DNA of 64,000 nt from Pristiophorus japonicus (lineage: Eukaryota), in the NCBI RefSeq assembly GCF_044704955.1, contig NC_091999.1, forward strand, positions 40,672,001 through 40,736,000, given 5' to 3'. Both the position numbers and the translations under genes were made by a program. The notes below the pieces were generated by a model. That model searched no databases, had not been told where the DNA came from, and was given only the letters and a program-made list of their open reading frames with translations. Below, piece after piece: positions 24,190-57,499 of this stretch (position 1 is its first letter; every line of letters starts with the position of its first letter).

Positions 24190-27100
24190 CAGGGTGCATG
24201 CATTTAATGGCCCAGTGTGCTGTGCCATTTCTTTCAACTGGGTGCTATTTATTGAACCTGTAACTCGCCCGGTTTGTATCTGATCCATATTGTGTCTCAC
24301 CTGACCAATCATCCATCTCCCATTGCATGACATGTGTCTCTTTTCCTGTCCTCGGCATCGTCCTCTCAATTCCTGCTTATTTTGCTCATTAATTGTTCCT
24401 GCATGGCCTTCCAATACGGATACACCCTCTAGCATTTTTTTTGGATGTTTTAGATCCTAACTCTGAAGATTCTATCCCAATCCTGGCCTGTTTCCTGATT
24501 AGTACCTCCGTTGTTCCCCTCAAGCTATCTACACGTGCCTGGATCGCCTGTCTATCTGGTGCATCTACTAGAAATGACCCTGTAAAGTTAATACGTCATT
24601 CGCTGTAAATCTCCTCTGTCTTCCTTCTTTGTGTCTCCGCTTCTTGTGTTACTCCCTTGCTCCTGATGTGTCACTAGCTATTCTCAGGATTGTGTCTAGC
24701 AATCGTATTTACACCGCTTTAGTCTTGTGGCTAATTTTTTCTGGCAGGTATAGGGCTGATTAATTTATGCTCACAGGTAACATTTCATGCTGCACATTGT
24801 CAAATAACAACATTACTTCTGTTCCAGATTTAACTACCACGCAATTTCCCAAGATTAATTCCCCTGGTTTACAATATTCAGGTAACATTTTTTACATACT
24901 TGTCTTATGGCTTCAAGGCAAACGCTCCTGACACTTAGATGCCGCCCTCGAGAGGCTGCTTTACGTACTTGTTGTACCCTCCGCTGTGGTTAAATGCTTC
25001 TGGGCCCCCGAGGGGCGGCCTTGTAGCTTGTCTTTGTAGAATCTGAAGGACGGTGATGATCACGTTTACATTCTGTTGATAAAACACATCCTGGATATTC
25101 CAGGTTTTAGTTAGAGTCTTACCATTTCCATTACAACCGGATTTTCCTTTCACTAGCCACTGTATTTGTTCTGCAATTGCTGTGGTTAGGTACAAAATTC
25201 CTGCAATAGCTAAAGAACCCCAGTACCTTACAAACCCCTCAGACTGGTTTTGGTAGGGGCATAATCCTAATGTCCTCCTTCCTGTCATTGGACATGGTCC
25301 GAGTTCCTTGGGATATTTCGTGTCCCAGGTACTGTACCACAGCTTGTCCGATTTGTGCCTTTTTGGGATTTACTTTAAATCCTGCTTTCCGTTATCTCAA
25401 ATGTTTCAGTTTCAAAGCCTTTACGTCTCACTTTCTGTGGTTCTTCAATCACTATATCTGAAGTCACAAGTTCAACTTATATTGTCCTTTGTTCTAAACT
25501 GCAAAAGCCTGCCGTTTTAACATTTACTTTTTTTCAAAATTCCTTTTACACTTTCGCAGATAGCTCCCCACTTGCCCAGGAGTTTGACCTGATCCCTGAA
25601 GGTATTTCTATATTGTTTCGAAACATGATAGTTTTACTTATTTTTTTTAAGAGATCAGATTTAACTTTTTATGTTAAATGTATTTCATTTTGTTGTGTAT
25701 TTTCTTAAACAGTGGTACTTGAAATCTTCAGAACAAAATTAACTCTTCACTGCTCCCATCCTGATTTCTGCTCCCCTTTTGTAGTATTTGTATTTATTGT
25801 TGGATTATGAAATGTTAAATATGGTAATACTGTTTTTTAATCGGACTTATCATTTATGTTTATAGTGATTCACAGATCACAGAATGCAAAGTACTTGTTT
25901 TATAATTATGTGCCTGACTTCTGTTTTAGAAGCTGAACATCAAAAACTCTAATCTTTTGCGCTGTAACTTCAATTTTGTGATACAGTATCTCATAAATTT
26001 AATCTTTTTCAGCTTCAGCTTCTGACACAGTATGTTTACTTTTATTAAAAGTCTTCCAAACCCAAGATTTTCCAATACAACCAAAATGTTTATCAAGGAG
26101 AATCACCAGAAATATCTCAAAATCCCAATTCAAATATGCCAATCTTTTATTTAAAAATCTTTTTACTGAGCTCGAAGCTTTCGCATCAAGATTTTACACA
26201 AAGAAATATGGGGCGTACTTCCCAAGCCCGCAGTCTTGCGACACCCATGCAGGATTCTTTTTTTAAGGCATTACAATTTCCCTTCTCCGTTCTTTATCTC
26301 ATTCCTAGACTAAATGTATTGTCTTTCAAACAAATGTAATCAATGATTACATGTTTTCTTTTGACAAGTGAGCGTGTCGAAAATTTTTTATTAAAACCAT
26401 CGGGACCACACATTTTTAATCTTTTGCTCAACAAACCTATCCTTTGTGCATTTCCTAGCACCATAACATATCATCTGAATAAATCCACACCTGGGTTTCT
26501 AAATTAAAATGTCATTCAATTCTAGGTTCACACTTTCTTAAAACTTCCTTCATACAGGACAACACTGCAAAGGGTTAAAACAAATTCACTCTGTCTGAAA
26601 AAGTGGGTGGGGCCATAACAACAGACAGCTCTGCCACTTTCTGAAGCAGGCTTTCAGACACCTGAAAAATTCATTAATTCCCACCTCAAATATTCCGAAG
26701 TCCAAAATCACACAAGCACTTTCATTCAAAGACAGACATTCACAAAAATCTCTCTTTATTCAACAAAGCTTATTGTTTGGCCGGCTCTATTTTTGTATCC
26801 ATACTTCACTTAAGAAAGTCACTAACAGTTTTTGTTATGGACTTCCGAAAACTATCTACTAAGCGAGCCTTCTGGCCCCCAATCAATACTTTATTTTCCT
26901 CAGGTCCTAATCATAACCCTGTTAGTGGGGGATACAAATTTGGGCCAAATTCCTCTGTCCATTCCCTTCTGTCAATTATATCTATTTTTATACTTACATC
27001 CTGTTGTCTTTTGTCACATTCTCTGTCCATCTCACCTTCGGGTATCTTTCTATTCATCTTTCCAGCTGTTAAAATGATCTTTTTCCATTCATCATATCCT

Positions 27101-34040: not shown

Positions 34041-34399
34041 GCCTGAGGGAACTCTCCAGTGAGACAATTAAACTGCACACTGAAGGATATTAATCACAGT
34101 CACTGAATAAACAAGTTGTCCGAACGTTCTCTTTGCATCACTTTCAATTGCAAAATATCTTAAAAGCAACGTGGCTATCAGATCAAATAACCTAATCCAA
34201 AACCAAGCACTATTGGTAAAAGCAGAAATAGTTAATTCCACAGAATCACAGCTTGCATGTAAAGGGAGCAGCTTCATTTAGGGAGTTTCGATTATTACTG
34301 AGATGTAAAATAACTCTGTAATTTCAGAATTTCAATTCACTTCTCGGGGTAACACAAGTGAAATAAAACAAATGGAAGGATAGATGCAGGCTAAGTAAA

Positions 34400-35345
34400 G
34401 GTCAGTAACATACATGGGCACTAACAGTACAGTGCTAATTCAGGATACATGGGCACTGATAAAACAATGGTCAGTAAAGATATACGACGACTGATCACAC
34501 AATGACCAGTAAGGATACATGGGGACTGATAATACAGTGGTCAGTGAGCGTACATGAGGACTGATAATACAATGGTCAGTAAGGGTACATGGGGACTGAT
34601 AATACAGTGGTCAGTAAGGGTACATGAGGACTGATAATACAATAGTCAGTAAGGGTACATGGTGACTGTTAATATAATGGCGAGTAAGGATACATGGGGA
34701 CTGATAATACAGTGGTCAGTAAAGGTACATGGGGACTGATAATACAATTGTCAGTAAGGGTACATGAGGACTGATAATACAGTGGTCAGTAAAGGTACAT
34801 GAGGACTGATAATACAATTGTCAGTAAGGGTACATGAGGACTGATAATACAGTGGTCAGTAAAGGTACATGAGGACTGATAATACAATTGTCAGTAAGGG
34901 TACATGGGGACTGATAATACAATGGTCAGTAAGGTACATGAGGACTGATAATACAATGGTCAGTAAGGGTACATGGTGACTGTTAATATAATGGTGAGTA
35001 AGGATACATGGGACTGATAATACAGTGGTCACTAAGTTTACATGCAGAGGGATAATACAGTGGCCAATAAGGATACATGGGGACAGATAATACAATGGTA
35101 AGTAAGGGTACATTGGAAGGATAATAAAATGGTCAGTAAGGGTACATGGTGACTGTTAATATAATGGTGAGTAAGGATACATGCGGACAGATAATACAGA
35201 GGTCAGTAAGGATATATGGGGACAGATAATACAGTGGTCAGTAAGGGGACATGGGGCAGATAATATATTGGTCAGTAAGGGTTCATGGGGACAGATAATA
35301 CAATGGTCAGTAAGGATACATGTGTGCTGTTAATACAATGAACAG
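34400..35345. repeat. 35-bp minisatellite (about 26 copies)
   Basis: Unit ggtcagtaagggtacatggggactgataatacaRt; period 35 (34574 to 34609). Confidence 0.93.
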
Positions 35346-35417
35346 TTAGGATTCATGGCGACCGATGCCATACTGATAGTTACACGGCATCTTATCGTTT
35401 ATTTTCCTCAGAACAGG

Positions 35418-37433
35418 AATGGAGAGAGTGGAGGTGAAGAAAGGAGATGAAAGGAGCAGAGAGGTGAGGAGGGGAGAAGAGAGAGGACAGGAGGCGGGAG
35501 GGGAGTAGACGAGAGGAGATGAGTGTAGAGGAGAGGAGAGAAGGGGAATAGGAGAGAAGAGGTGAGGGGAGAAGATGAGTGGAGTGGAGAAGACAGCAGA
35601 GCAGAGTAGAGGATAGGAGGTGAGAGGAGAGGTGGGAAGAGGAAAGAGAGAAGATGAGCAGGAAGGGGAGGAGGGTTTAGTGGAGGAGAGGATAGAGGAG
35701 AGGGGAAGTAGAGAGGATAGCAGAGCAGAGATGAGTAGAAGAATGGAGAGGAGAGTTGATAAGAGGACTGGAGCGGACAAGAGAGGAGAAAAGAGGGCAG
35801 AGGAGAAGATAGCAGAGGGGAAGAGAGGAGATGAGGGGAATGGAGATGAGAGTGTAGGGGAAATGGTAGGAGAGGAGAGTGGAATAGAGGTGGGGAGAAG
35901 GTAGGGGAGAGAAGAGAGATGAGAGGGGAGAGGAGGAGAGGAGCGGAACGCAGAAGGGAGGAATGGAGAGAAGTGGAGAGGGGAGAGAGGATGCAAGGGA
36001 AGGAGAGTAGAGCAGAGTAGAGGGGAAGGGTGGCGGTAGAGCAGAGGAGAGACCATCAGAGGGGAAGAGAGGAGGGGCAAGAAGAGATGAGAAGGGAGGG
36101 GAGAAGAGAGGGGAAGTGGGGAGGAGAATGGAGGGAAGAAGAGCTGTGGAGAGTAGAGCAATGGAGAGCAGATGAGAGGAGAGGAGAGAAAAGAAGAAAG
36201 CAGAGTGGAGAGAGGAGGGTAGTAGATTAGAGGAGAGGAGAGTAGAAAAGAGGGCAGGAGAGGAAAGAAGAGTGGGTAGTATAGAGGTGAGTAGAGGTGA
36301 ATGGAAAAGAGGGGTGGTGAAGTTAGGGGAGAGAAGAGGAGAGAGAAGACAGTGAATGAGAGGAGGAGGTGAAAAGAGGGTAGAGGAAAGGAGAGCAGAC
36401 GGGAGGAGAGGGTAGGAGGGCGAGGAGAGGAGTGGAGAAGAGAGGAGTGGAGAGGGTACAGGAGAGCAGAAGGAACGAGAAGAGCGGGAAGGAGAAGAGA
36501 GGGGAGAACATCAGAGGACACAAGTTGAGGAGATGAGTTAAAATGAAAGGGGAGAAGAGGTGAGAAGGAGGGGAGAGGAGAAGAGGGGAGAATTTAGGGG
36601 AGCGGAGTAGAGATGATTGGAGTGGAGAGGAGAGTGGAGATAGAAGCGACTTGAAAACAGGGGAGAGGAGAGGATAGGGGAGGAGGGGAGATGATTGGAG
36701 ATGATAGAGCAGAGGAGAGGAGATGAGAGGAGAATGGAGGAGAGGAAAGGGGAGGAGAAGAGGGTCGGGGTGAGGGGAGAATGGAATGGAGGCGTGGAGA
36801 AGTTAGGCGAGAGGGGAGAAAATGAGGACACAAGAGAGTTGAGGAGAACAGCTGAAAGGGGAGGAGAGTTGTGGAGAGGTTCGGGAGATGGGAGAGGAGA
36901 GAGGAGAGAACGGGAAAACAGGTGAAGAGAGAAGTGGAGAGGAGAGAGGAGGAGATGGGAGAAGGGATGAGCCGAGTGGAGAGGATAGAGGACGAGATGG
37001 GAGAGGAGGAGAGAAGATGAAAGGAAAAGGAGTTGAGCAGAGGAGAGAGGAGATGAGAGGAGTGTGGAGGAGAGGGGAGGCGAGAGGAGGAGAGTTGTGG
37101 AGACGGGAGGAAAAGAGAGATGAGCGGAGAGAGGAGGGTAGAGATGAGCAGGGAGGGGACGAGAGTGTAGGGGAGGAGAGGTGAGAAGAAAGCAGAGCAG
37201 GGGAGAGTAGAGGAAAGGAGAGTAGATGTGATGAGAGGCGAGGAGAGGAAATTGGAGTGAAGAGGGGAAGGGATTAGAGGAGAGGACTGGGGAGAGGAGA
37301 GGAGAGAGTAGGGGCGAGGGTAGGAGAGGAGAATAGAGTAGAGGAGGGGAGAAGGCAGGGGAGAGGAGAGGACACGAGCACAAGAGAGATGTGAGGAGAG
37401 AGGAGAGGAGAGGGGAGGGGTGAGGAGGGGAGG
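35418..37433. repeat. Approx. 2-kb polypurine tract, degenerate (GGAGA)n
   Basis: Almost exclusively A/G on the plus strand. Confidence 0.93.
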
Positions 37434-38030
37434 TGTTGGGGTTAAAAGGAGGCTTCTCTCCTTTAAGGTGGACTAACTGATGTAGTTAAACGACACCTCG
37501 CCCAGCTTCCCACTGTATAACGTCCAAAGAAGTAAACAAACGAAACCTCAGGTTTATTGGTTTTATTCCGAGCAATGCACGGGAAGGTTCAATTTGGAAC
37601 CTCTGAAATAGAAGGGTTTTCAAGCATAATTTATACAGGTGTTGGAGAGGAGCTTTCCTCCTACAAAATCATCGATAGTTCTATTGCTATTAGCGAAGTT
37701 ACATTGATTTGTTGACTCTTATCAGACGGGCTCTGAGTGGTACATGAAACTGCCCATCTCTCATCTTTGTTTTGTTCCATTTTGCCCTCTACCCCAGTCT
37801 ATCCGATGCCTGGTATGGTAGTCCTGGTTTCTTTATCTCTTCTCAGGGACTTATAAAGAAAACTGCTGACTTTGGCTGCTTAAGTCTTACTAAGGTTAAG
37901 CTATAATATACTGCGTATAAGCGTGTTATACCTTTATAAGCAAGTGTTACATACATAGGCAATTGATAAGTTCACAACCTTCAGCATAATTCTGACCCCC
38001 TATCTACAACCTTACTATTTATCCTTTACA
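37434..38030 (-). repeat. 3' LTR of ERV-B
   Basis: Minus strand runs TGTAAAGG..TTAACCCCAACA and is preceded by the polypurine tract TAGGGGGAAT (38031-38040); TATAAA at 37630-37635, AATAAA at 37553-37558 and 37562-37567. Confidence 0.85.
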
Positions 38031-38269
38031 ATTCCCCCTAATGGCCCAAGATAGCCAATGTCGCAATTAATTCCACATGGGTGAGCTTCCAGTGGTGTCC
38101 TTTCACTTGGGTAGTGCTGCTTCCCGAGCTCCTGGACCTATCTGTTGGTTTTCCCATCAAGGTTATACTATGTAAGTCCTTTCTGCCGGACTGTCTGATT
38201 TCCCTTTCTTCAATGTTTTATCCATAGTACGGACTAGGGCCTGCTTCTTACGTCGAATCCAGCTTTTTA

Positions 38270-40219
38270 AAGGATAATACTAGCAAGGTGAGTTCCCTTG
38301 CACTGCAACCAGTACATTGAGTCCAGCATACTTCGTGTATAAGTCCTTTCTAGCCAATATTTGCTCGGTGTTCGAATAATGCCCCGCCTGGGGTATCCTC
38401 TCTTTCTTCTATTTTTCCTCCACTTGGGGTCTTCTCTATTCTACCGAATTCTTGCCCTGCCTGGGGTATCCTCTATGTTGACGAATGGTGTCCAATTCAG
38501 TCCAGTTTGTTTCTCTTTCAGTTCGAGTATCGGTTTTCCTTATTGTCCGATGGCCTTCGCATAACCTCCTCAGGTAATGTCCATCATTGCCCCGTCGATC
38601 TTTCCTCCTTTAGCTCAGGGGTTGTAATAAACCCATTTATATCTGTCTCGTCAAATGGAGTAAAGCAGAAGTCAATATCCATAATGGTGCATGAAGTGTT
38701 CCTATCTTCATTTCAGTTGCCGTGATGCTCACACATCAATCTCCATATCCTCGTGGAACAGCGATAATTTAGTAGTAATGTGTTAGCGGGGTGATACTCA
38801 AGGTGCACCTGTCCACTTGGTTATATCCACAGTCATCTTTGATCATTCGTAGTGGATCTCGACATAAAGCAACTTGGTTATTTTTATAACAATCTACATA
38901 TGCTGGGACTCTTAGTACTGTTGTTCTCCTCAGTTACATTTCTGGTTTTTCATCGTACCGCACACGAGTTTGATTCCTTTTTTCTCCTACATTGTTTGAT
39001 GTAGAGTATCTACCATTGTCACATCATCCTGTCATATAGATAATAAAAAATCTATTTAATGCGCGGTTACACAGCAGGCCTTTGGGACCCAAGCATGAGT
39101 GTTTCTCTACACCTCGCAGGCATGAGTCATGTATTTGTCTAAGGTCCAGTTGGTAAATATATCGAGTGTTATCCAATCCGGCACCTTTCCATTCTGAAGC
39201 TATTCAATGTTATGTTTTATTCCATTCAGCAACCATACTCCATATCCTACACATACTAGTTCTGTCTGTATGGTTTTACTTAAGTTCGTTTCTGCTCTAT
39301 TCATTTTTAGTTCTGGCGTGGTCTCGCAATGTGTGGGCCAGTTTAATAATTCCCTTTCTGCGCCATTACCTAGTTCTGTCTGTAACTTTTCATGATCCTC
39401 ATCCCTTTCCAGCAATCACTGTAAGGTTTGTGTTTCGGCGTTAACTCGATAATCTATCGTGTCTGGCTCTATAGGTTGCAACTCCCGCAATGTATCCCAC
39501 CGTGTACCATTTCTAGCATCCCTCTTTTTCCCCTGTCCCGTTTTTTACCTGACCCTCTTTCGACAATAAATTTCATGGCTTTTGATTGAAGGACTTTAAG
39601 ATTTCGCAGGGTCAGGTTTCTATACAGGCTTATACTGTTTAACCTGCAGATGTTGGTGTTAGTTATATTGTTTAAATTTACAAATACAGTAATTATTCGC
39701 TGACGTACCCTGAAGTGTATCTTATCCTTGGTCTGCCATAGCAATTTCTCTTTTGCCCCAGCGTTCACAGTTGGACACGTTTGTGGCGCTGGGCGTGTGA
39801 TGGTCGAGGCCCTGGTTATGCTCACTGTTGCTAAAGTAGTGGGTGGGGCCGTGTTGGTGGGTCTATCTCTGGAGATATCCCTCCACCACCATTCATAGAT
39901 GTTGAGTGAAATCTGCACCCACTTCCCCGGGTGCAATATGTTTGTCCCTCCTGATTATTAAACACACCGCGGTCTTATTCCCACTAATTATGGTTCTATA
40001 TTATTGTCTCATCCCCAATGTTGTTTCGTTTCCTTGTTACTTTGTTTTATGCCCGTTATTTAACTCTACTATTGTTCTGTCCGTCACCATCAGTGTTTTT
40101 GATTCTTTATTAAACTAATGTCGCCCAAGTCCCTGTAATACTGGCCTTGCCATCCCTCAGTCTGTTGTCCCTGATATGAGGCTGCGTTACTCCACGTTAT
40201 TTCTATGAGCACTTGAGGC
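38270..40219 (-). pseudogene. env: ERV-B env, paramyxo/pneumovirus F-like fusion protein, disrupted
   Basis: Acceptor cttttttgcAG at 40221-40220; furin RGKR at 39523-39534; helical region; CVGYGVWLLNGIKHNIE*LQNGKVPDWI; C-x8-C-x10-C-x7-C at 38805-38891; hydrophobic anchor near 38270-38330. Confidence 0.75.
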
Positions 40220-40249
40220 CTGCAAAAAAGCAATCTTTTCCGGTTGTCA

Positions 40250-43200
40250 CCGGTTAGTTAGTGACCATGCTTTTTTAACTGGGTTCAGTGTTTCCACTTG
40301 CTGATACTCCTTATAAGTACCATAACTTACCATGATTACCTGATAGAGTACAGTCCAGTTGGATGCGAGCCAGGACCTCTCTGGGGTAATGTCTTGACTG
40401 CCTATTTGGGGTGTTTGGAACTTCTGTTTCTTAGTGTCGCTATCTAAATCCTTGATTTGCTAATCTGTAGCCTGTATCTTTACATCATGTAACTGCTTAC
40501 AGAGTTCCATTACAAATTTCCATTTTTTTTTAGTTCAAAGGTATCATTCCTGTCGTCCGACTAGGGGTTGCTTTGAGCTTTATTTCTACTCGGGATATCC
40601 TGTCTACCCGTCCCTTTCCATTCTCCTTTAAGTGGGATATTTTTGCCTAATCCCTAGGCGCAGGCCTGTTTCATTATCATCCCTGTGAAGTGTGTACCTT
40701 GATCTGAGTTCAGCTGCAGTGCCATTATTTTGTTTGCTAGGATCCTGGCCATGGTTTCTACTGAACAATTTCTAGTGGCGAAAGCTTCTACCCACTTCGT
40801 AAACTGGTGTATTATAACTAAGCAGTATGTCTTCCCCTTGTTGCTGGATAATGGTCCAGTAAACTCTACCTGAAAATTTTCTCAGAGTCCCTTCGGTCGG
40901 GGCTGATGTCCCATTCTGATCTTTACTTTCCACCCTGGGTTGTATTTTGTGCATATCATGTACCTTCCACAGAGGTGCTCTATATCTCTACCTAGTCCCT
41001 TCCATCACCAGCATCTGGACATCGAGCTTACCATGCTGGTTCTACCTGTATGGACATACCCGTGGTGTTAATTTAACAGGCTCCCCTGGATACATTCCAG
41101 GGCCACCACATTCCCATCTTTCCTCCATATCCCGTCGGTCCCTTGTTGGACCCTCTCTGCTTCCACCCCTCCTGTTCCTGCGGAGTGACTTCTCCCTGTA
41201 CCGTAAGCATGTTTACTTCCTCAGGCCCGATTGTACATGCTCCGCCTTGGGCTTCCCCGGCCAGTGTACCTGCCACTCGCTTGGTTGCTTCATCTGTCCA
41301 TGCATTCCCCTGTTCATACTGATCATTATTTTTTACGTGTGCTTTGATCTTTATTATCGCACACTCCTGGGGTAGGAAGTAGGCTTCCACTAGATGTTTA
41401 TCAATCTCCTCATGTTTAATCGGTCCTCCTCCTGAGGTCGTGTATACCCGTCTGCTCCAGGCTATCATATAATCATGATCTACTCTGAAAGCATATCGAC
41501 TGTCTGTATAGACGTTAACTCATTTTCCCCTAGCCAGCCTCAGAGCCTCAGTTAGAACCACTAATTCAACCACTTGAGCTGATAGATTCTCTTCTAACCG
41601 TCCTTCCCCTTTGGCCTGACCGCTGCTATCTATCACGACCCATCCTGTCTGTGGTGTCCCATTGATATAGCGCCGAAACTCTTCTACATATAGATCCATG
41701 TCTGCCTCCTCAAGCAGGGTTTCACTTGCCTGACTACTTCCCTCATCTTCTGTTGTGCTACACTGATGCTCCTTTCCCTCTGTAATGATCCACCCTGCAG
41801 GCGTCTTTTATTATTGTTACCGTCCCGTTGAGTGGGGTGGTGGTGGGGGGGGGGAGGAGGGGGGAGAGCGTTATTTACCACCTTGCCCTTTGTGCATCGA
41901 ATACATTTTTAGCCTTCCAGTGTTAAGTAATTCTACTAAGGTACGCTGGGTTTGTAGAATAATGCATCCTGACATTATTATTGGTTTGTTAACTCTGATG
42001 GCCCAAGCCGCACAGTCGAGGGCAGCAACGCACCTGGACAGTCCTGCAGCTACAGGTTGCGGTTTGTCTGAGTAATATGCCACGGTCTATGCCTGTCTCC
42101 ATGTAATTGAATCACCACCGCGTTATAATGATGGTTAATATGGTAGGTATAGACGTAAAAGGGCCTATTCTGGTCTGGTAGTCCCAGGGCTGGAGCACTT
42201 GTGAGAGTTTCTTTTAACCGCACACATGCAGTTTCTTGATCTAGGCCCCAGTTTACTGGCTCTTAGGAGGGTTCCCACCCTTTGACCTGGTCAATATAGG
42301 TTAGGTCATCTTGGCATATTCGGGAATAACATTTCTGCAGTAGTTGAATAGCCCTAGTACCTGCCTGACCCCTTTCACGGTTCCTGGCCTGAGAATTGAT
42401 TGAAATGCTTCCTTACTGTCCTCGGGCATCTGGCTCTTCCCTTACGATATTATGTATCCCAGATATGTTACTTCGCTCCTTCCTTCTCCTAAGTCTACTG
42501 GTTCCAAAATCCCTGACAATATTCGATGAAATATGCTCCGGCTGTGATTGAATCCCTGTGGTACCTTAGCCCATGTGTATTGTTTTCCCTTTACCGTGAA
42601 GACAGCATTTCCTTGGATCACTTTGTCTAAGGGGATGGTCCAAGTTCCATTCACTATACCAGCACGGTGAATATATTACGATCTGGATCCAGGCCATTAA
42701 AAACTGTGGCCGGACTTGCCACTATTGGGTGTTCTCCGGATGTCACCTTATTCAGGGCGTTATAATCGATAGTCAGTCGGTAAGACCTGTTGGGTTTCTT
42801 TATCAGCCACACAGGTGATTTAATGGAGGCTATTACATGTTTCAATACACTTTGCCCCTCTAATTCCTGCACTATCTGAAGACCGCTACCTCAGCTTCAG
42901 GTGTTAATTGGAACTGCCGGTGAGCTTTGTGTTCGGGTCCAGGAATTTTGATGAGTTATATCTCTACTAATCCATAATCTTGTTGCATTGTGCCCACAGA
43001 GTCGGGTATAATTGGCACACGCTACCCCATACAGCCTTTGTTTCCCACTCAGGTTGGATTATGGTTGTTCCTACCACTCGTTGCTGCTGGTGTCCCGGAT
43101 GTTCGAACTTAATTCGGTTTTCGTGCTTATCTCCCAAAATAATCCGGTTATGCTGAGGATCTATCAGTACCCCTATCTCCCTTAATGTATCGATGCCCAA

Positions 43201-43330
43201 TATGTTGTCTTCTGTATTCTGACAGCACCAAAACTGAGCAGGTAGCATTACCCCTGTACTTCTAACAACACCATCTCACTTAGGGTTGCTTTCTGATATC
43301 CCCCACCCTCTATTTGTAAGTTGACGGTCC
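40250..43330 (-). pseudogene. pol: ERV-B pro-pol (PR, RT, tether, RNase H, IN), disrupted
   Basis: ILGIDTL (PR); SPVWLIKKPNRSYRLTIDYNALN and YTWAKVPQGF (RT; the YxDD segment is deleted); AYYS..AAGLSRCVAAL (tether); SAQVVEL, VYTDSRYAF and IKAH..GNAWTD (RNase H); QVEFTGPL and NSDQGTHFTG (IN). Confidence 0.9.
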
Positions 43331-43446
43331 TATGGGTCAGGGGCAAATCTAAGTTGGTTATTGGGTGTTCTCGGGTTGGGGCAGTGGTGGCAGTGGTACC
43401 AGTGGTGCTGGTACCTGTCTGAGCATATCCATCTGATCTTCCCTGG

Positions 43447-44420
43447 TTAATGCTGTTCCCTTCTTTGCCTGTTGGTGGCCTCGCCTCCCCCATTACTCCA
43501 GCAATCTTTGGCCAAATGTCCAAGTTTACCACAATTTTGACATCTCCCTTTAGAATTTCCGTAAACTCTGCTTTTCAGCGGGCAATCCCTACTGAAGTTG
43601 CCTTCCTGATTGCAGTTTAAACATATCAGGTGAGCTGCGCGGGAGTGCGTCTCTTCCTCCTTCGTCTCGGCTGCTACTGCTGTAGCTGCTATTTTTGCTC
43701 TTTTATCCCTTTGTTCTAACTTTAACTCCTCTGCATGTTCTGCCCATTCCAAAGTTTCATCATAATAATCTCCAATGTTAAATACTCACTTAATTATCTT
43801 TTGATGTGCCTTTCAAAGTCTATCCTTAAACATTTTCAAGAATTCTGCATCATTTCTGTTGCGGTCATCAGCCACAGAGTGGTTTTTATATTCAATCCAA
43901 TTTCGTTCCCCATACTCCCCAACCCTTTTCCCTGCCTCTTGAGTCAAAATATTCTTCTCCAAACTTTTGTCAGAATTCTGTATTTCTACTATTTTGCTTT
44001 AGCGGTTGGTAACTTATTCAATAGAATTTGTCTCCTGTGGGCTGAGGGGCACCTCCTGTTTGGTAATGTGGGCTGCTCTACATCCGCTGGAGGGAATGGT
44101 GGTGGTGCGTATCGGTGTCACTGATAAATAGCCATTATCATGTACCGGTGCCCCTCTACTCTGCAGTCATTATCCCTGTCTGATTGACTGTTAGGTTGGG
44201 GTTGTGGACTACACTTACCCACCGTGGGGTACACCGTAGGGATAGTGCACTGCACTATCCGTCTGGTCCTGTCTTTATCTCTTCCAGCTTATTTATCTTA
44301 GCTTCTAACGCTTGAATTTGTTTTGTTTGAGTATCTATCTGTCCTCTGTAGCAGGCAAGTATTATTGCATAGGCTTTCTTCGTTTTATTTTTATTCTGAC
44401 TATCCCACCATGTCTTCTGT
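43447..44420 (-). pseudogene. gag: ERV-B gag remnant
   Basis: Two zinc knuckles, CLNCNQEGNFSRDC (His lost) and CQNCGKLGHLAKDC; coiled-coil-like TKQIQALEAKINKLEE near 44280-44330. Confidence 0.82.
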
Positions 44421-47400
44421 CTGTCGGGTGAGTCTTCTTTCTTTTATTAAGGAATCCAAACTAATAATGTCCAGTGCAAATAAAATAGCTGTCAATGGAA
44501 TGGGTTAACTCCACTACAGGTATGTAAGAAGGTCTGACGTCATTACGTGACTTCGGTTATTCATTTGAAAATATTTCCCCAAGTCTTTGTGCTTTCAAAA
44601 CTTGATAAGAAATTAGGAATCTGTTAAAATAGCAGAAATTATTCGTAAAGTTGTCAAAATAAAACCTTCTCAGCGAGAAAGGCAGCATTTTAGATTAAAC
44701 TCCAATTTCTCTACACATCCAATTCAAATATTTGCCAACGAGTTTTTCATTGATTTAATGCGAGACCACACATTTTTAACAGCTATTCTGTTTACAGAAA
44801 TCCAATTTCCACGCAATCTATATACATTCCAGCAGTTTTTTTTTTTACAATCCCGTTCACTGAGCAAATCTTATGTTTTATTTCTCTCGGCACAAAATCT
44901 AATCTTCGGTGCCGGTCCATCTTTTTTAAAAATTCTGTAACTCCCAGTTTTTTCTTTCTGTGCTGAGTTCGCCTAGCTTACTACTTTTCCCCCTTTTGAA
45001 TCCGAACTTAATCATTTTTTGATGACCTTACTCCAGTCCATAGTTAAACATCGTTGTTTCTCTTTCTCAGCACAAAGCTTTGTCGGGTTTAACTCGTAAG
45101 TTTTTATATTTAAACCAATATCTTTTTCACAGCCAATTTAAATCTCGTTTCTTCAAATGAGGTTTTGTAATTTGATGATCTTCCTCCAGTCCATTTTCCT
45201 CAACATCTTTGTTTCTCTTTCTTGCTGCTGCAGCTTTCAAGTTCGCATTTGTATCTTTTGGTAAAAACAAACTGTCCTTTGTAAATTCAATTTGCTTTTC
45301 CAACATTTTTCTTTTCTTTTATTAATTTTCCATTTATTTCAGCTAGCCTTTTATCCCACTGCCCAGTTTTCCTAGGATCCTGGGGTCCCACCCCACTTTT
45401 TAGCTTGAATTCCTTCTTGCTTGCACTGTGCACGATCAATACCAGCTTCACTGTGTTATTACCATGTCACGCTTCAGGTCATACGCCGTATATTTCCTCG
45501 AACGATCGCTGGGGTACTCTCTCCCTTTAGTTGTATTCCTTCTTTTTCAGGCAATACACCTATCCCACCCTTGGTTTTCAGCCTTCTGTGATTAATTATA
45601 ACTTGTCCGACAGCTTACCCTTTCTAATTCTTTATACAGATTACCTCCTTCCCCGTCAATGCTACAGCCATGTTGCTCCTTTCAGTGTACAACACTGCTT
45701 ATCTGGTGCTATCCAAGTTCCTCCCTTCTGAATCAGATATCTTGGATATTCCTCATACTGTTTATGGATCGGACCTAACTCAGTCTTCCACCCTTGCAAA
45801 CGATTCTACCCTATACACCATCCAAGGTTTCGTTTCATTTTTATTTTTCCTGAGCAAAGGCAAGACCAATCCCACTGGTCTAATATCTTCACTTCTTTCT
45901 CCTTCCCTAGGGGACAAAATCCCCATTCCTATTGGCTGCATCACATCAAAGCCTATGACTTTATTCCCCTAAACCATTTTCTCAGTTGTCCTTCATGAAT
46001 AAACAAAGGGATTTGATTACTCTCTCTCTTGTCTAGTCCCTTCTGTACCACATTCATCATAAATGTCACAGAGGCGACACATGATACCTGTAGTAAGCCA
46101 CATCGTGTTCCCATTCACTTTCTGTATCTATTCTGTTTACTCCTGCTAACCTTGCTGTGGCTCCTATTCTGAGCTATCCTGTCAGCTCCCACTTTCCTTG
46201 CGATTTAAACTGATTCTCCTTGTGTTCCGCATCTTCCTCATCCCTTGGTTCCTGTTTTCTATTCTTTACTAACACATCCTTTCCTAATTATCTTCCAATT
46301 TTGTCTATTAACTGTGAATATCTCCCTTCACATAATCTAGTTGATAGATTCAAGCTCATATTTAAATCTTTTGATTTCAATTCACAACTTAAAAAAACAC
46401 ATTGTTATATGATACATTTCCAGATTCAGTTAATTCTAGTCCATTAAAATGTGGGTTATTTTACTGGATCGGACAGGTCAAGTTCTTTTTGTGAGGTGGG
46501 ATGTCATTTTATTAAAGTCCCACATATGATGATCACTGTCAGCGTTTTTACTTGGCAAACCAATAGTTAACATTACTGATCAACATACGACATGTCTTAC
46601 TTTAAAAAAACCTGCTGTCATTACCTTTTTAGTTTGTATTGAAGTATTTTATAATGGTCTTGAATTGCTTATTGTCCTGGAGTGATACTAACTCTTAAGT
46701 GAACACTATTAATTTAGTGTTTGGGGTCAGGATGTGTCCCAACCCACCTGGTTCAGGGGAGTCTTCCTGGTCTCCCAATCTTCCCAAGGAGCAGGCTTTA
46801 GGGTTCTTTCTCTATTGCCACCAAAATTATGCTTTTGAGGGTCTCTGCATCGGTTTATCATGGATTGCAAAACTAACCCTTTTGAGGTCCTCTGCTTCCT
46901 CCTGGAGATCGCCTCTCACTTGGATCCATGTTTTGTTATGGAGCCTGTGAGGTCTGGCCTCCTTATCTCCCACCTTCAGCTTGTAGCTGATCTGTACACA
47001 GCCATGGCCACCTTGTCCAGACAGAGAGAGGCTGACTTTTTTTGTTTTTAGCCTCTCTACAAGCTTTCTTTGTTCAGTACTTAGTGGAGGCCTTGAAACT
47101 GATGACCATTCCAGCTGTAAGGAAATCCTAATTTGATTAGCATTCTCGCTACTGTTAATTCTAATGCCTCTGACAGGTAGCAGTGTGTTTAACTCTTTCC
47201 TGGTTATTTCAAAGTCGCTTTCTCTATCGAGAATGTGTCACGACCTTGATGGTTTAAAAATTTCTCTCACTCTCCTGAGCCACATTAGCCATTTCATGTT
47301 GTGCTGTTGTCGATAACTGAGCATGCCTGAGACTCGTTCACACAAACACGCAGCGGTATCCCAATATCATGCCACATGTGGCATCTGATCCAAACCATTT

Positions 47401-48490: not shown

Positions 48491-49754
48491 CAATTCAATT
48501 CAATAACAATCGATCCCAATAATTAAACTCAATACTTTAAATTTCGAAGTCCAACTTTGTCAGCATGCTGTGACATTCGATGTCTGCAGATAACTGGAGA
48601 TAATTTTGTTTTAACTGCTGGATCTTTTGCTATGCCATCAATCTCTTATCCAACTGGAACTGGCATTGCCTAATATGGTCGTCTTTGGTTACGGCATAGT
48701 CCAGAGACACAAGTCTGCATTGTCTTCAACATACATCAACAATGTTGGAAGCACTGGTCTTCCTGTGGCAAGCACAAACCACTAGTCTTTGAACTCTTCT
48801 TATTCGAACATAATATTTCTAATCTAAACATTCTATGATGAAAATATCCACGGCCAGTTGGTTGCAAACACCAACTGCTGCTCAGTGAAATCTCTCTCTG
48901 ATGATAACAACCACATTTTCCCCGATATGGAATGAACTAAACATGAACACCTTTCAGAAGCTGAATTAACCGAGTTCCCTATGCCTACACCCCTCTCATC
49001 TTCCATTCACTTCAACTGAAAGGAAAATGCCAGATTGTATCAGTCGGGATTTGAAAGAAATTTACACAGATGCTAGATATTCTTAGAGTTAGCATTGTTC
49101 TCTATTCTGTCTACTCGAGGAGTTTGATAACAGACTTTCTCTAGTGAATGTAGAGCTGGAATATTGGGCCGGGATGTATTTACTTGTTCATCTTGATGAC
49201 TCGAAACCGTTGGCAATTATTTGATGTGATCTGTATTTTCTTATATACATTTCCTGAGTGGATTCAAATTTAAATTGAACCCAGGTTTGCAGGCGTGATG
49301 CTCCATTCACCCATCGAAGGTGAGAGAGATGCTGTGGGACACACTAAGTCCAGTATCTGAAAGTGATTCACAGACTGGGTTTTGTGTTCAGTTATCCCAG
49401 GCATGTTATCGACACCTTCCCACAATAACAAGGCTAGGAGAGGTACTCTGGAAGGTAAAGGGAACTGGCATTTGTCCACGAGAGTAACCAAAGGTATGAG
49501 AACTGAAATAATCCAGAGTTAGAAAGGAGAAAAAGCCCCAAAATGGTGCAGTCAGTAACAGGACATCAATTAGTCTCCCCTTATCTTGGAACATTAAATG
49601 TCGACACACTCTGTTATTGAAATATCAAAATATTATATTCCAGCCCAGTTATACGGTTATTATCATCAGAAACAAACTTCAACTGTCGGAATGGACACGA
49701 TTCAGTCGGGATGTGATTAACAGCTGCAATGATAGCAGAATCCAACACCTGCAG

Positions 49755-50455
49755 TCACTTGTGAACTTGCTGGTGTCTCAGCAGGTGGGATGAATGAGTG
49801 AATCGCTTCCCACACTCTGAGCAGGTGAATGGCCTCTCCCCAGTGTGAACTCGCTGGTGTATCAGCAGGCGGGATGACACAGTGAATCGCTGCCCACACT
49901 CAGAGCAGGTGAATGGCCTCTCCCCAGTGTGAACTCGCTGGTGTGTCAGCAGGTCGGATGACCGAGTGAATCGCTTCCCACACTCAGAGCAGGTGAACGG
50001 CCTCTCCCCAGTGTGAATGTGTTGATGAATTTCCAGTGCAGACGGGTAGCTGAATCCCTTCCCACAGTCGCCACATTTCCACGTTTTCTCCGTGGTGCAG
50101 GTGTGCTTCCGTCTCTCCAGGTTGGATGATCAGTTGAAGCCTCCTCCACACACAACACGTTTACAGTTTCTCCCCGCTGTGAATGGTGCGATGGTTTTTC
50201 AGGCTGTGTAACTGGTTAAAGCTCTTTACACAATCAGTGCACTGATACACTCTTACTCGGGTGTGTGTGTCTCAGTGCTTTTTCAGTCACACTGATGTTT
50301 GTAATCTTTCCCCACAGACAAAACAAAAAAACATTTCTCCTTCCACATTCAAAGGCCGATGATATTCAAGTCCTGATGAATCGAGTGACTCTATCTGATC
50401 ACGACGTGACGTTAAGTTTGAGTTTCCCTTCTTCAAATCCTCCCCTTCTAACACC
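49755..50455 (-). pseudogene. C2H2 Kruppel-type zinc-finger terminal exon (4 intact and 3 broken fingers)
   Basis: [38 protein letters not shown].. gives four fingers ending at TGA 49757-49755. The upstream fingers carry stops and a frameshift. Acceptor ttttgcAG at 50457-50456. Confidence 0.88.
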
Positions 50456-50574: not shown

Positions 50575-51905
50575 TAAAAATAATAAAGAGGGAGAAGGTA
50601 GATTGAGAGTAAACTGGCAAGAAATATAAATGCAGTCAGAGCTTCTGCAGATATATAAAAAGGAAGAGATAGTTAAAATAAAGGTTGGTCCCTTCGAGGA
50701 TGAGACGGGTAATTAAAAATGAGAAACAGGGAAATGGCAGAGACTTGAAACAAATATTTTGTGTGGTCTTCACGGTGGAAGACACTAAAAACATCCCAAT
50801 AATAATAGACAATCAAGGGGTCACAGGGAGCGAGGAACTTAAAACAATCACTATCACGAGAGAAAAAGTACTAGACAAACTATTGGGACTAAAGATGGAC
50901 GTCCCCTGGACCTGATGGCCTGCATCCTGGGGTCTTAAAAGAAGTGGCTGCAGAGAAAGTGGATGGATTGGTTGTAATCTACCAAAATTCCCTGGATTCT
51001 GGCAAGGTCCCAGTGGATTGGAAAACCTCAAATTCAACACCCCTATTCAACAAGGGAGGGAGGAAGACAGAAAGCAGGAAACGAAAGAGCAGTTAGCCTA
51101 ACATCTATCATTGCGAAAATGCTGGAGTCCATTATTAAGGAAATAGTAGCAGGACATTTAGAAAATTATAATAGTCAAACAGAGACGGCATGGTTTTATG
51201 AAAGGGAAATCACGTTTGACAAATTTGCTCGAGTTCTTTGAAAATGTAACGAGCAGGGTGGATGAAGAGGAACCAGTAGCAGTTGTGTATTTGCATTTGC
51301 AGAAGTCATTCGATAAGGTGCCAGATAAAAGGTTACTGCACAATATAAGAGCTCACAGGGTTGGGGCTAATATATTAGCATAGATGTAGGATTGGCTAAC
51401 TAACAGAAAACACAGATAAATGGGTCATTTTCAGGTTGGCAAAATGTAACTAGTGGGGTGCCACAGGGATCAGTGCTGGGGCCTCAACTATTTACAATCT
51501 ATATTAATGACTTGGATGAAGGGACGGAGTGCACTGCAGCCAAATATGCTGCTGATACAAAGATAGGTGGGAAAGCAAGTTGTGAGGAGGACACAAATAA
51601 TCAGCAAAGGGTTATAGACAGGCTCAGTGAGTGGGTAAAAATTTGGCAGATGGAGTATAATGTGGGAAAATGTGAGGTTATGCACTTTGGTAGGAAGAAT
51701 AATAAGGAAAATTATTATTTAAATGGAGACTACAAAATGCTGCGGTACAGAGGGATCTGGGGGTCGTTGTGCATGAAACACAAACAATTAGCATGCATGT
51801 ACAGCAAGTAATCAGGAAGGCAAATGCAATGTTGGCCTTTATTGAAGGGGAATGGAGTATAAAAGTAGAGAAGTCTTGCTACAACTGTACAGGGTGTTCG
51901 TGAGA
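50575..51905 (+). mobile_element. CR1 ORF2 (RT) fragment
   Basis: MKGKSRLTNLLEFF, PQGSVLGP and W.M.YNVGKC motifs. Confidence 0.92.
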
Positions 51906-52002
51906 TGATTTTGAGGAATAGACAAAATATCTAAGCATTGATAAATGCATCATCTAACATCTCCAACTGAGCTAACCTGCTGTAACTATGTCAGTATTTG
52001 TG

Positions 52003-52430
52003 TCAGCTGTGACTCAGTGGGTAACACACTTGCCTCTGGGTCACAAGGTTGTGGGTCGCTGTCGCACTCCAGAGACATAAACACAAAAATCTCGGCTGAT
52101 GCTCCAGTGCAGTGCTGAGGAACTGCTGTACTGTCGGAGGTGCTGTCTTTTGGATAAGATGTTTAACCGAGGCCGTGTCTGCTCCCTCAGGTGGACGTAA
52201 AAGGTCCCATTGCACTATTTCAAGCAGAACAGGGGAGTTATCCCCGATGTCCTGGCCAATATTTTCCCTTAACATCAGTAAAGCAAATTATCTGGTCATT
52301 ATCACATTGTAAATTGGTTGCTGTGTTTCCTACATTACGATAGTGACTACACTTCAAAAAGAACTTAATTGACTGTAAAGCACTTTGGGGCATCTGGTGG
52401 TGGTGAACGGTGTGAAATAAATGCATGTAT
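52003..52430 (+). mobile_element. Near full-length DeuSINE (SacSINE1-like)
   Basis: tRNA-like head (gctgtgactcagtgggtaacacacttgcctctgggtcacaaggttgtgggtc), Deu domain (ggtgctgtcttttggataagatgtttaaccgagg..caggtggacgtaaaaggtcccat) and LINE-like tail. Confidence 0.8.
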
Positions 52431-52684
52431 TTTATTACTCTCCCTTCTCCCATTGTGCCTCCTTTTGTCTGCTGTCACTTCCCCACCTCCTCTTCCTCAC
52501 CCAACTTTACAGTTCATTTCTTGTGTACATGGTCACTCACTCTATCTCTCCTTTCCCTCACTGTGTCGCTCCCTATAAGCTGTCCATCTGCCATATCTCC
52601 CAGTTCTGATCAAATGTTCTTCCTGACCCATCACCATTTCTCCTTCCTTTATAGACAACAACTTTCATTTATATAGCGCCTTTA

Positions 52685-52850
52685 AGAACATTAGAGTTAT
52701 GAGCAGGAATAGGCCATACGGCCCCTCGAGCCTGCTCCACCATTCAATAACATCATGGCTGATCATCAACCTCAACTCCACTTTCCCGCCCGATCTCCGT
52801 ATCCCTCGATTCCCCAAAACACCAAAAATGTGTCTATCTCAACCTTGAAA
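52685..52850 (-). mobile_element. CR1 3'-terminal fragment
   Basis: gagcaggaataggccatacggcccctcgagcctgctcc is the reverse complement of the CR1 3' UTR. Confidence 0.8.
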
Positions 52851-52939
52851 TAACTCTGTAAAATGGCCCCTGGTGCTTCACAGGAGCATTATCAGATAGA
52901 ATTTGACACCGAGGGTCAAAGCGGCACATTTTAAAGAGG

Positions 52940-54755
52940 GTTAAAAAGGAAAAGAGTTGCTCAAGTAAATGTTGGTCACCTGGATGATGAGACTGGGGAA
53001 TTAATAATGGAGAACAGGGAAATGGCAGAGACGTTGAACAAATATTTTGTATTGGTCTTCACGGTAGAAGGAACTAAAAACATCCCAATGGTGGATAATC
53101 AAGGGGCTACAGGTAGGGAGGAACTTAATACAATTACTATCAGTAATGAAGAGGCACTGGGTAAAATAATGGGATTAAAGGTGGACAAGTCCCCTGGACC
53201 TGATGCCTTACATCCCAGGGTCTGAAGAGAAATGGCTGCAGAGTGGATGCATTGGTTTTAATCTACCAAGTTCCCTGGATTCTGGGGCAGTCCCAGCAGA
53301 TTGGAAAACCACAAATGTAACGCCCCTATTTAAAAAAGGAGGCAGACAAAAAGCAGTAAATTACAGACCAGTTTGCCTAACATCTGTCGTTGGGAAAATG
53401 TTGGAGTCCATTATTAAGGAAGCAGCAATGGGACATTTGGAAAAGCATGATTCAATCAAGCAGAGTCAGCATGGTTTTATGAAAGGGAAATCATGTTTGA
53501 CAAATTTGCTGGGGTTATTTGAGGATGTAACGAGCAGGATGGATAAGGGGGAACCAGTGGATGTGGTGTATTTGGATTTCCAGAAGGCATTCGATAAGGT
53601 GCCACATAAGAGGTTACTGCACAAGATAAATGCTCACTGGGTGGGGCTAATATATTAGCATGGATAGAGGATTGGCGAACTAACAGAAAACACAGAGTCG
53701 GGATAAATGGGTCATTTTCGAGTTGACAAACAGTGACTAGTGGGGTGCCGCAGGGATCGGTGCTGGGTCATCAATGATTTACAATCCATATTAATGACTT
53801 GGATGAAGGGACAGAGTGTAATATAGCCAAGTTTGCTGATGATACAAAGATGGGTGGGAAAGTAAATTGTGAGGAGGACACAAAAAATCTGCAAAGGCAC
53901 AATGAGTGTCAAAAATTTGGTAGATGGAGTATAATGTGGGAAACTGAGAGATTATCCACTTTGGCAGAAATAATAGAAATGCAAATTATAATTTAAATGG
54001 AGAAAAACTGCAAAGTGCTGCAGTACAGAGAGACCTGGGGGTCCTTGTGTATGAAACACAAAAAGTTAGTATGTAAGTACAGCATGTAATCAGGAAGGCA
54101 AATGGAATGTTGGCCGTTATTGCAAGGGAGATAGAGTATAAAAGCAGAGAAGTCCTGCTAAACCTATACAGGGTATTGGTGAGGCCACACCTGGAGTACT
54201 GCATGCAGTTTTAGTCTGCTTATTTAAGGAGAGATATACTTGCACTGGAAGCTGTCAGAGAAGGTTCACTAGGTTGATTCCGGATGTGAGGGGGTTGTCT
54301 TTTGAAAATAAGTTGAATAGGTTGGGCCTATACTCATTGGAGTTCAGAAGAATGAGAGGTGATTTTATTGAAACATATAAGATAATGAGGGGGTTCGATA
54401 AGGTGGATGCAGAGAGGATATTTGCATCCACTCATAGGGGAAACTAAAACTAGAGGACCCAGTCTTAGAATAAGGGGGCCGCCCATTTAGAACTGAGATG
54501 GGGAGAAATTTGTCCTCTCAGAGGGTTGTAAATCTGTGGAATTCTCTGCCCCAGAGAGCTGTAGAGGCTGGGTCACTGAATATATTTAAGGTGGAGATAG
54601 ACAGATTTTTGAACGATAAGGGAGTAAAGGGTTATGGGAAGCGGGCAGGGAAGTGGAGCTGAGACCATGATCAGATGAGCCATGATCTTATGGAATGGCA
54701 GAGCAGGCTCGAGGGGCCAAATGGCCTACTCCTGCTCCTATTTCTTATGTTCTTA
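52940..54755 (+). mobile_element. 5'-truncated CR1 LINE (RT and 3' UTR)
   Basis: KSPGPDALHPRV, NYRPVCLTSVVGK, YLDFQKAFDKVPH and KFADD motifs; tail ttcttatgttctta. Confidence 0.95.
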
Positions 54756-55027
54756 GGGTGTTAAAGGAGGAGGGAGAGGTTTAGGGAGGGAATTCTGGAG
54801 CTTAGGGCCTCGGCAGCTGAAGGTATGGCCACCAATGGTGGTGTGATTAAAACCCTTCATCCAAGTCATTAATATGTATTGTAAATTGTTGATGACCCAG
54901 AGATCCTGGAGGGTTGTAGGGTGGGAGGAGGTTACAGAGGTAGGGAGGGGCGAGGGCACGGAGGGATTTGAAAATAAGGATGAGAATTTTTAAATTGAGC
55001 TTCGTGCCCAGTCATCATTTCTTCTTC

Positions 55028-55800: not shown

Positions 55801-55849
55801 GCTATATTTTTTGAAATATTGGAAGAGTTTAATAAATCTTTGATTGTCA

Positions 55850-56490: not shown

Positions 56491-56657
56491 GAATTCTTTA
56501 CAGACGCTCCCTGCTCAGTCACCATTGCTCCTTCATTTACAGGCGATCCCTGGTCCATTACTATTTCTCGTTGATTTACAGACGCTCCCTGAGAGTTTGA
56601 CACAGACACAGCGCATGCACTGACCGTTCCTTCGGGCTGGAGCGGACCCAGCAGGCA

Positions 56658-57440: not shown

Positions 57441-57499
57441 GGCCCGGGGCTGCACTCGGTGTTGTTGTCCCCAGCGTTTCTTTAACCCGCACCCTCGAT

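Follow-up and report, generated by a model that had tools for sequence, protein, structure and literature searches.

Does an endogenous retrovirus (ERV) in the genome of the shark Pristiophorus japonicus represent a lokiretrovirus, or a conventional retrovirus whose envelope protein (Env) resembles that of lokiretroviruses? The element lies in a stretch of 64,000 nucleotides (assembly GCF_044704955.1, contig NC_091999.1, positions 40,672,001 to 40,736,000 of the forward strand), hereafter the window, to which all coordinates refer. An original prediction, made from the letters of the window, had proposed a lokiretrovirus-like ERV with a paramyxovirus-F-type Env, and a chondrichthyan member that fills a gap in the loki host range. 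Our analysis upholds the envelope and not the family. We consider it very probable that the element is a defective shark ERV whose reverse transcriptase (RT) lies inside Retroviridae, likely at a grade resembling snakehead retrovirus (SnRV; class III, clade Huo), and whose Env is homologous to loki Env and predicted to be of the paramyxovirus fusion protein (F) type (class Ib).

Phylogenetic placement of the element

The RT tree was based on 38 rows and 271 columns under LG+G4 and included loki, foamy, gamma, epsilon, SnRV and gypsy references. The SnRV reference (L076, 10,688 nt) was recognized by an RT that matches the one printed in the supplement of PMC7947760, and the loki references (L077-L079) by their loki RT motifs, the Env motifs of L077 also being found in published loki Envs. 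IMG/VR supplied the foamy, gamma, delta and walleye-virus contigs, which were labelled by motifs and lengths. Alpha-, beta- and lentiviruses, fish foamy-like viruses, Odin, CGIN1 and CmiERV were outside the reference set of all trees, and delta rows entered only a quick mixture-model tree.

Lokiretroviruses (100/100) were sister to a retrovirus clade (100/96) that contained the window RT, and the same placement was obtained in the quick version of the mixture-model tree and in a tree with further shark families. Constraining the window family to group with lokis cost 64 log-likelihood units and was rejected by the approximately unbiased (AU) test (p 1.7e-5). As lokis are defined by an RT that is sister to all other retroviruses, and the window RT sits inside Retroviridae, the element is not a lokiretrovirus but a conventional retrovirus of SnRV-like grade. 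Its RT belongs to the known Retroviridae at family level, and not to a named genus; the result by which the original prediction would be refuted, an RT inside known Retroviridae genera, thus holds for the family and not for any one genus. The RT fell outside the gamma plus epsilon clade (100/98) and formed a clade (90/92) with horn shark, smooth-hound, fathead minnow and eel cluster sequences. When more shark families were added, a grouping with SnRV was not rejected (p 0.44), whereas one with class I was (p 0.028). SnRV was also the best named RT match, at 44% identity and 234 bits, followed by walleye epidermal hyperplasia virus (WEHV; 194), gamma (184/166), foamy (178/176) and loki (159/158) references.

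The RNase H tree placed the window family with gamma/epsilon (99/98) and loki with foamy viruses, and a clade of the family with loki was rejected (AU p 0.011); the available text of Wang & Han (PMC7947760) likewise groups loki RNase H with foamy viruses. In the integrase (IN) tree, which held no CGIN1 reference, the family was nearer class I at 84/95.

The P. japonicus genome comprises 5.9 Gb and is matched at 99-100% by proteins that carry this species name in UniRef; the nearest named relatives of the RT and Env belong to other sharks. True lokis were also sought in this genome. A loki pattern search gave 0 matches, and a true loki RT query gave a best identity of 40% among the 144 scored of 198,864 candidates, a result that does not establish absence. 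Four loki-query RT matches placed in trees belonged to other retroviral families; the family C/D RTs retrieved by this query fell inside retroviruses (98/94), a clade with loki not being rejected for them (p 0.12). The claim of a shark lokiretrovirus falls and the chondrichthyan loki gap remains, the locus itself being a decayed copy. In the available portions of the literature, lokis were reported from none of six chondrichthyan genomes (PMC7947760), clade Huo is said to infect all major vertebrate lineages and the loki hosts listed there include no cartilaginous fishes (PMC6001957, PMC8922424), and an SnRV-like lineage, CmiERV lineage I, is described from the elephant shark (PMC4422223).

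Predicted fold and relationships of the envelope protein

As had been claimed, the env region is not orthoretroviral in type: neither CX6CC nor LQNR-type (immunosuppressive-domain) motifs occur in any of its three frames. Pfam Fusion_gly, Baculo_F and TLV_coat gave no match in the window env pieces, six natural env open reading frames or full-length Envs, and Baculo_F appeared once among 33 Env homologues (E 0.001).

The fold was modelled on P0101, a natural uninterrupted paralogue of 730 aa from a sister subfamily, with AlphaFold2 and an alignment of 30 sequences. The predicted local distance difference test (pLDDT) score was 56 overall and mostly 70-85 in the core. A Foldseek search of the PDB with this model was headed by the F proteins of respiratory syncytial virus (RSV; 2e-10), human parainfluenza virus 3 (hPIV3) and Newcastle disease virus (NDV), the list comprising RSV, hPIV3, NDV, henipavirus and human metapneumovirus F together with foamy Env. 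With VIA-align, the top 12 of 48,161 chains were all paramyxovirus or pneumovirus F or foamy Env (Z 6.5-10.3), hPIV3 F being matched at Z 8.9 with a root mean square deviation of 5.2 Å over 266 residues. Matches in BFVD included baculovirus F, insect Mononegavirales glycoproteins, WEHV1, walleye dermal sarcoma virus (WDSV) as well as feline foamy Env. The model thus agrees with the paramyxovirus-F-type Env originally proposed, and the protein is predicted to be a class Ib fusion protein with nested domains I-III as in paramyxovirus and pneumovirus F.

A relationship to loki Env was also detected in sequence. A profile of 15 Envs labelled as chondrichthyan scored loki Env at 44-48 bits (40-44 when P0109 was left out), against 9-11 for WDSV, 2.6-2.7 for SnRV, at most 15 for foamy Env and at most 3.1 for shuffles. 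With hhalign, the shark Env profile gave long collinear alignments to loki (78), WDSV (49) and SnRV (40) Envs, compared with shuffle maxima of about 28, and no signal on the three (truncated) foamy Envs or on Gag controls. A first hidden Markov model test on SnRV Env was not significant (3.0 bits, E 0.25), so that only hhalign separates this Env from shuffles. On these profile comparisons, the shark Env is related to loki Env and shows weaker matches to WDSV and SnRV Env. PDB sequence searches with Env or Env profiles returned coiled-coil or immunoglobulin (Ig) noise and no paramyxovirus F, which places the shark Env much closer to loki Env than to F. The cysteine cluster of the window Env (C-x8-C-x10-C-x7-C) may be set beside that of measles F (C-x8-C-x14-C-x7-C) and the 9-13-10 spacing of loki Env L078. 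A single-sequence model of SnRV Env reached pLDDT 37. In the Atlas, a first query returned F-like clusters at 0.90-0.91 with low recognition, which is weak evidence, and a second query one unnamed cluster at 0.82.

Several observations weigh against our interpretation. The best named pairwise score of the IN was to loki (193 bits, against 178 for WEHV), and a clade of the family with loki was not rejected for this domain (AU p 0.10). SnRV and the window family formed no supported clade, and the base of the retrovirus tree was weakly supported (81/90 and 83/82); as the family comes out nearer gamma/epsilon than SnRV in the trees of RNase H and IN, 'SnRV-like' denotes a grade and not demonstrated membership. 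The loki references, all taken from metagenome contigs, amount to three RTs and two Envs that share 86% identity. The predicted fold rests on a paralogue 42-48% identical to the window Env; its model has a predicted TM-score of 0.39 and leaves residues 1-191 unmodelled, and whole-chain TM-scores were 0.2-0.3. When the sequences were compared directly in pairs, identity to loki Env was only 21% (E 0.002). Lastly, Pfam Fusion_gly was present in none of the shark Envs scanned, whereas loki Env itself gives a weak match to it (E 0.002); TLV_coat, which the original prediction had set against Fusion_gly, was not found either.

Alternative explanations for the combination of pol and env

The alternative that survives best is a recombinant lineage, in which a conventional gag-pol acquired its env, and possibly also its IN, by capture from a virus of the loki lineage infecting an aquatic host; the Env would then reflect one horizontal swap and not shared ancestry. 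It is compatible with our explanation and differs from it only on the origin of env. That the Env scores are far higher for loki than for SnRV, its nearest named relative by RT, would fit such a swap, as would the env/pol swaps described as common in anamniote ERVs (10.1101/2021.11.23.469661) and the RNase H/IN replacement reported for retroviruses (PMC7947760), both in the available text of these sources. However, the same Env class occurs on at least two RT lineages of this genome (families B and C) that are not nearest kin, and in frog relatives; identity to loki Env (21-25%) is as low as that between shark and frog members; and WDSV and SnRV Env also align collinearly. Any swap must be very old. 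We regard a single capture as a possible, but rather unlikely, source of this env.

Beyond this locus, the F-type (class Ib) Env may be the ancestral retroviral envelope, with gamma- and beta-type Envs as later replacements (scenarios 1 or 3 of Wang & Han) and sharks as its largest and youngest reservoir. On this view, the Env retained by those shark and frog ERVs that have a conventional RT would still bridge loki, walleye epsilonretrovirus and SnRV Envs in sequence. We advance it tentatively, the balance of arguments being close and tilting slightly to the other side. In the available text of PMC7947760, four scenarios for the origin of loki and other retroviral envelopes are left open because loki Env and retroviral Env showed no overall similarity to its authors.

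A foamy-like (clade Tu) fish ERV, whose Env could be F-like as well, would share the YVDD motif and is represented among the fold matches by foamy Env, and ERVs of that kind are reported from catshark in the available text of PMC10699275. We nevertheless hold it to be very improbable. Tetrapod foamy RTs formed a separate 100/100 clade (the references being tetrapod only, with no fish foamy-like ERVs), the RNase H is not of foamy type, Gag has zinc knuckles, an in-frame stop separates gag and pol, and the hhalign profile was silent on all three truncated foamy Envs.

A chondrichthyan lokiretrovirus is less probable again, and we give it little credence. The element does have a dual RNase H, an Env whose nearest counterpart among the reference Envs tested is that of lokis, and the IN affinities described above. 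Set against these are the rejected RT and RNase H clades, the absence of loki RT motifs from the window RT, a Gag with two CCHC knuckles where Pfam finds none in that of loki L078, and the empty pattern search of the genome. Least credible of all, to the point of being negligible, is an env-bearing, errantivirus-like Ty3/Gypsy element, since, although F-type env occurs in metazoan Ty3/gypsy elements (available text of 10.1101/2023.10.26.564294) and Atlas neighbours include Baculo_F/Gypsy clusters, the element has a tether and separate RNase H, as in all retroviruses, its RT is split from gypsy RTs by 100/100 and 100/96 branches, and its best PDB match for RT-RNase H is of murine leukaemia virus type (354 bits, against 133 for Ty3).

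Organization of the provirus

The decayed provirus lies on the minus strand in the order gag (two knuckles), protease (PR), RT, tether, RNase H, IN, env, polypurine tract and 3' long terminal repeat (LTR). Of 15 single-frame pieces of the window submitted to Pfam, 6 matched retroviral families, and those recovered were zf-CCHC, RVT_1 (partial), RT_RNaseH_2 (the tether), RNase_H as a separate domain, Integrase_H2C2 and rve. The true retroviral pol, with RT, tether, a separate RNase H bearing YTDSRYAF and IN, was confirmed, as were the two-knuckled gag, the polypurine tract and LTR, the early furin site about 1.2 kb before the transmembrane anchor and the cysteine cluster. The element had been drawn at 37434 to 44420; its 3' end stands, and its far end extends to about 45673. 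The features are as follows.

37434 to 38030, minus strand: 3' LTR, 597 bp, TGT...ACA, with a 5' LTR partner in 13 of 20 sibling loci.
38031 to 38039, minus strand: polypurine tract AGGGGGAAT, adjoining the 3' LTR and at the same position in the other copies examined.
38160 to 40250 (ends approximate), minus strand: env, interrupted by stops and frameshifts, a predicted class Ib (F-type) fusion protein, located by tblastn to paralogue P0101.
About 38265 to 38325, minus strand: predicted transmembrane anchor, placed by mapping (hydrophobicity peak at P0101 residue 679, tblastn).
38805 to 38891, minus strand: cysteine cluster C-x8-C-x10-C-x7-C, with identical spacing in sister and related families.
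39523 to 39534, minus strand: furin-type site RGKR, read from the sequence, followed by a predicted fusion peptide and heptad repeat A (model helices 270-386).
40250 to 41100, minus strand: integrase (H2C2 finger, rve core, C-terminal part), interrupted; Pfam PF17921 and PF00665.
41274 to 41700, minus strand: RNase H of gamma/epsilon type by tree, YTDSRYAF at 41510-41487; Pfam PF00075, E 1.3e-14.
41870 to 42262, minus strand: tether (degenerate first RNase H); Pfam PF17919, E 1.2e-8.
42268 to 42911, minus strand: reverse transcriptase, YxDD region deleted near 42480; YVDD is present in dispersed copies.
42990 to 43360, minus strand: protease remnant, DTG active-site part deleted near 43360, by comparison with other copies.
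43420 to 44650 (5' end approximate), minus strand: gag remnant, by sequence and Pfam, with two CCHC knuckles at 43501-43623.
44650 to 45673, minus strand: 5' internal region (leader, possibly an upstream coding remnant), 85-91% identical by blastn to sibling and dispersed copies.
45665 to 46475, minus strand: env fragment from another ERV whose Env is of the same class, adjoining the truncated 5' end of this element and lying outside it; tblastn to bamboo shark protein P0109, 31%, E 3e-13.

The window env aligned with P0101 at 42-48% identity over residues 153-560 (tblastn), and the stretch from furin site to predicted transmembrane anchor, about 1.2 kb in the window, corresponds to 407 aa in P0101. 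The first CCHC knuckle carries an H>N change in the window copy. The 5' internal region stops where the primer-binding site (PBS) and 5' LTR were lost.

Lesions, copies and the ancestral virus

The window copy is defective and inert, since the 5' LTR and the catalytic motifs of PR and RT have been lost and stops are numerous. All three same-subfamily copies aligned have about 160 nt bearing the protease DTG motif, and about 135 nt bearing the RT YxDD motif, that are missing here. Of the two LTRs, the 3' one alone remains; an env fragment of another ERV has taken the place of the 5' LTR and PBS.

Of the 45 env DNA matches listed, 43 sit on the window's own contig. The flank beyond the 3' LTR, at 93-99% identity, was common to all 20 sibling loci fetched, compared with 1 of 20 loci picked by RT, and the sibling loci are therefore segmental duplicates of one old locus. 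The reading of the C23 matches as independent insertions was rejected. The 5' LTR is retained in 13 of the 20 siblings. In the four sibling LTR pairs measured, the Kimura two-parameter distance was 0.21-0.23, with no clean target site duplication (TSD), against 0.01-0.05 in six dispersed pairs; recombination between two proviruses is therefore possible.

Dispersed copies occur on many contigs, at 84-89% DNA identity within the same subfamily and 65-73% in the sister subfamily. They carry YVDD, LVDTGA, 5-bp target duplications and a PBS, and in several of them env and pol are linked in cis, flanked by paired LTRs and TSDs. Of 10 family copies checked, 3 (L038, L052 and L064) have an in-frame TAG that separates gag from PR, the others being broken at the junction. 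In L040, a copy from the same subfamily, the PBS shows complementarity to the 3' end of a tRNA-Ser(CGA) gene of the host. No related loci were found among the viral contigs searched, and the sequencing runs listed comprise four DNA runs from one study and no RNA run.

From these copies and established retrovirology, the ancestral virus would have produced Gag-Pol through readthrough of the one stop codon that follows gag, with tRNA-Ser as the primer for reverse transcription, and its integration would have duplicated 5 bp of the target. Furin would have cleaved its Env at R-x-K-R, exposing a fusion peptide beside a long heptad helix. In the model, both subunits are predicted to build F-like beta domains, with class Ib fusion activity, and the N-terminal extension probably served in receptor binding. 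The window copy itself spread passively, through segmental duplication.

Comparison with related retroviruses

SnRV shares RT motifs with the window family, as well as a knuckled Gag (E 9e-11), a collinearly aligning Env and a common frame for gag and pol with an intervening stop, a trait readable in the three copies with an intact junction and also known in gamma/epsilon viruses. The SnRV grade already had a cartilaginous-fish host in CmiERV lineage I (PMC4422223, available text). SnRV differs in having a 1134-aa Env frame that is only weakly similar to the 730-aa Env of the shark paralogue, and one knuckle instead of two; the shark RNase H and IN are nearer gamma/epsilon, and no 3' accessory open reading frame was seen in the window family.

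Lokis resemble the family in their dual RNase H, in an F-related Env with an R-x-K-R site that is detectable by profile, and in the IN pairwise score, whereas the shark RT and RNase H are not of loki type and the smc gene was not found in the window family. The shark Env has an N-terminal extension of about 190 aa, its furin site lying at residues 269-272 compared with about 120 in loki Env. WDSV and WEHV have the same RNase H type and an Env that matches by fold and profile, and are described as lacking gamma-type Env hallmarks in the available text of PMC9967133. They differ in having YMDD where the shark family has YVDD and a much longer Env, the shark RT lies outside the gamma plus epsilon clade, and no accessory genes were seen in the window family.

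Foamy Env and paramyxovirus or pneumovirus F share the nested domain layout and fold of the shark Env model, while identity is 10-15% with no sequence-level PDB match. The extra domain is N-terminal in the shark Env and inserted before the furin site in foamy Env. Foamy Env has been described as F-like by structure and class Ib (PMC11468914), and F-like proteins are described, with no genera named, in reverse-transcribing viruses (PMC12583693), both according to the available text.

Novelty and significance

SnRV relatives in a chimaera were already known; what is new is an SnRV-grade retroviral lineage with a loki-related, predicted F-type Env. No report of an F-type Env in SnRV-grade or shark ERVs was found in the literature searched, the coverage of which leaves out most subscription journals and Repbase, and the combination is not described in the available text of PMC10699275, 10.1101/2021.11.23.469661, PMC12440569, PMC11089739, PMC12193657, PMC13709493, PMC2717909 or 10.1101/2023.10.26.564294. 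A conventional-RT lineage whose Env matches loki, WDSV and SnRV Env provides missing intermediates for the Env tree, and makes an ancestral F-type Env testable against repeated capture. Our data also suggest that much of the env gene content of shark ERVs goes undetected by Pfam and by surveys of gamma-type Env, and hint that F-type entry machinery is perhaps far commoner among fish retroviruses than described.

Distribution of the Env class

Among 1.84 billion representatives, 34 relatives of P0101 were found, and 20 of the 22 looked up carry names, which are those of sharks, a skate and three species of frog. P. japonicus has two further high-copy retroviral families, with Envs 25-32% identical to P0101 (E <=2e-46), in both cases downstream of a non-loki RT; one is a close relative of the window family and the other branches separately. 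In a related family, the N-terminal extension of Env gave a weak Ig_3 match (E 0.002). Some copies of the two families have LTR pairs that are 99.6-100% identical, and the Env class has therefore invaded the shark lineage repeatedly and recently. Frog Env motifs were absent (0 of 3) from the loki consensus set, of which the first 817,345 characters were covered.

Six loci of a related family with the same Env class were fetched from several contigs (L137-L142). Their gag, pol and env frames are uninterrupted in four, and three have identical LTR pairs, so these insertions are very recent. A separate retroviral family with the same Env class (L126-L136 and L143-L148) has pol frames of 1423 aa, one knuckle and YVDDLL; its RNase H does not cluster with gamma/epsilon viruses, and its RT, although the best P. 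japonicus match to loki, falls inside retroviruses in the tree. The window holds a second ERV relic of the class at 24181-25415 on the minus strand, with a partial RT (25415-25173) and env (24813-24181, 68 bits to the profile), most of the pol between them being missing.

Long or full-length Env homologues (P0123/P0136/P0137, P0125, P0138 and P0109) appear as host genes in the annotations of Bombina, Pelodytes, Xenopus tropicalis and Chiloscyllium, and some of these could be co-opted genes. One of them, P0125, provides a link by matching the Envs of loki (E 2e-15), SnRV and WDSV in an ordinary BLASTP search. The Envs of WDSV (L124, 5962-9648) and SnRV (L076, 6131-9535) align with the shark Env profile and the WDSV and WEHV1 Env models match by Foldseek, which suggests that the WDSV, WEHV1 and SnRV Envs are of F type too. 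An unnamed 874-aa chordate cluster in the Atlas resembles shark Envs. In the available text of PMC2717909, zebra finch Ovex1 ORF3 is likewise 874 aa long; on this agreement in length only, the conserved Ovex1 ORF3 of birds may be an F-type Env that was co-opted.

Other features of the window

An exon of a C2H2 zinc-finger gene lies at 49700-50200 on the minus strand, and the contig looks zinc-finger-rich with heavy segmental duplication. A purine-rich low-complexity tract flanks the LTR, and this tract and tandem arrays with units of 35, 39, about 44 and 54 bp occupy 35350-37433, 34340-35390, 54970-55900, 56650-57490 and 62430-63995. The regions 4000-24000 and 50900-54800 contain repeated units about 3 kb apart, and 16-19.8 kb matches 51-54.8 kb over long inverted stretches; both are probably LINE-type repeats or local duplications.

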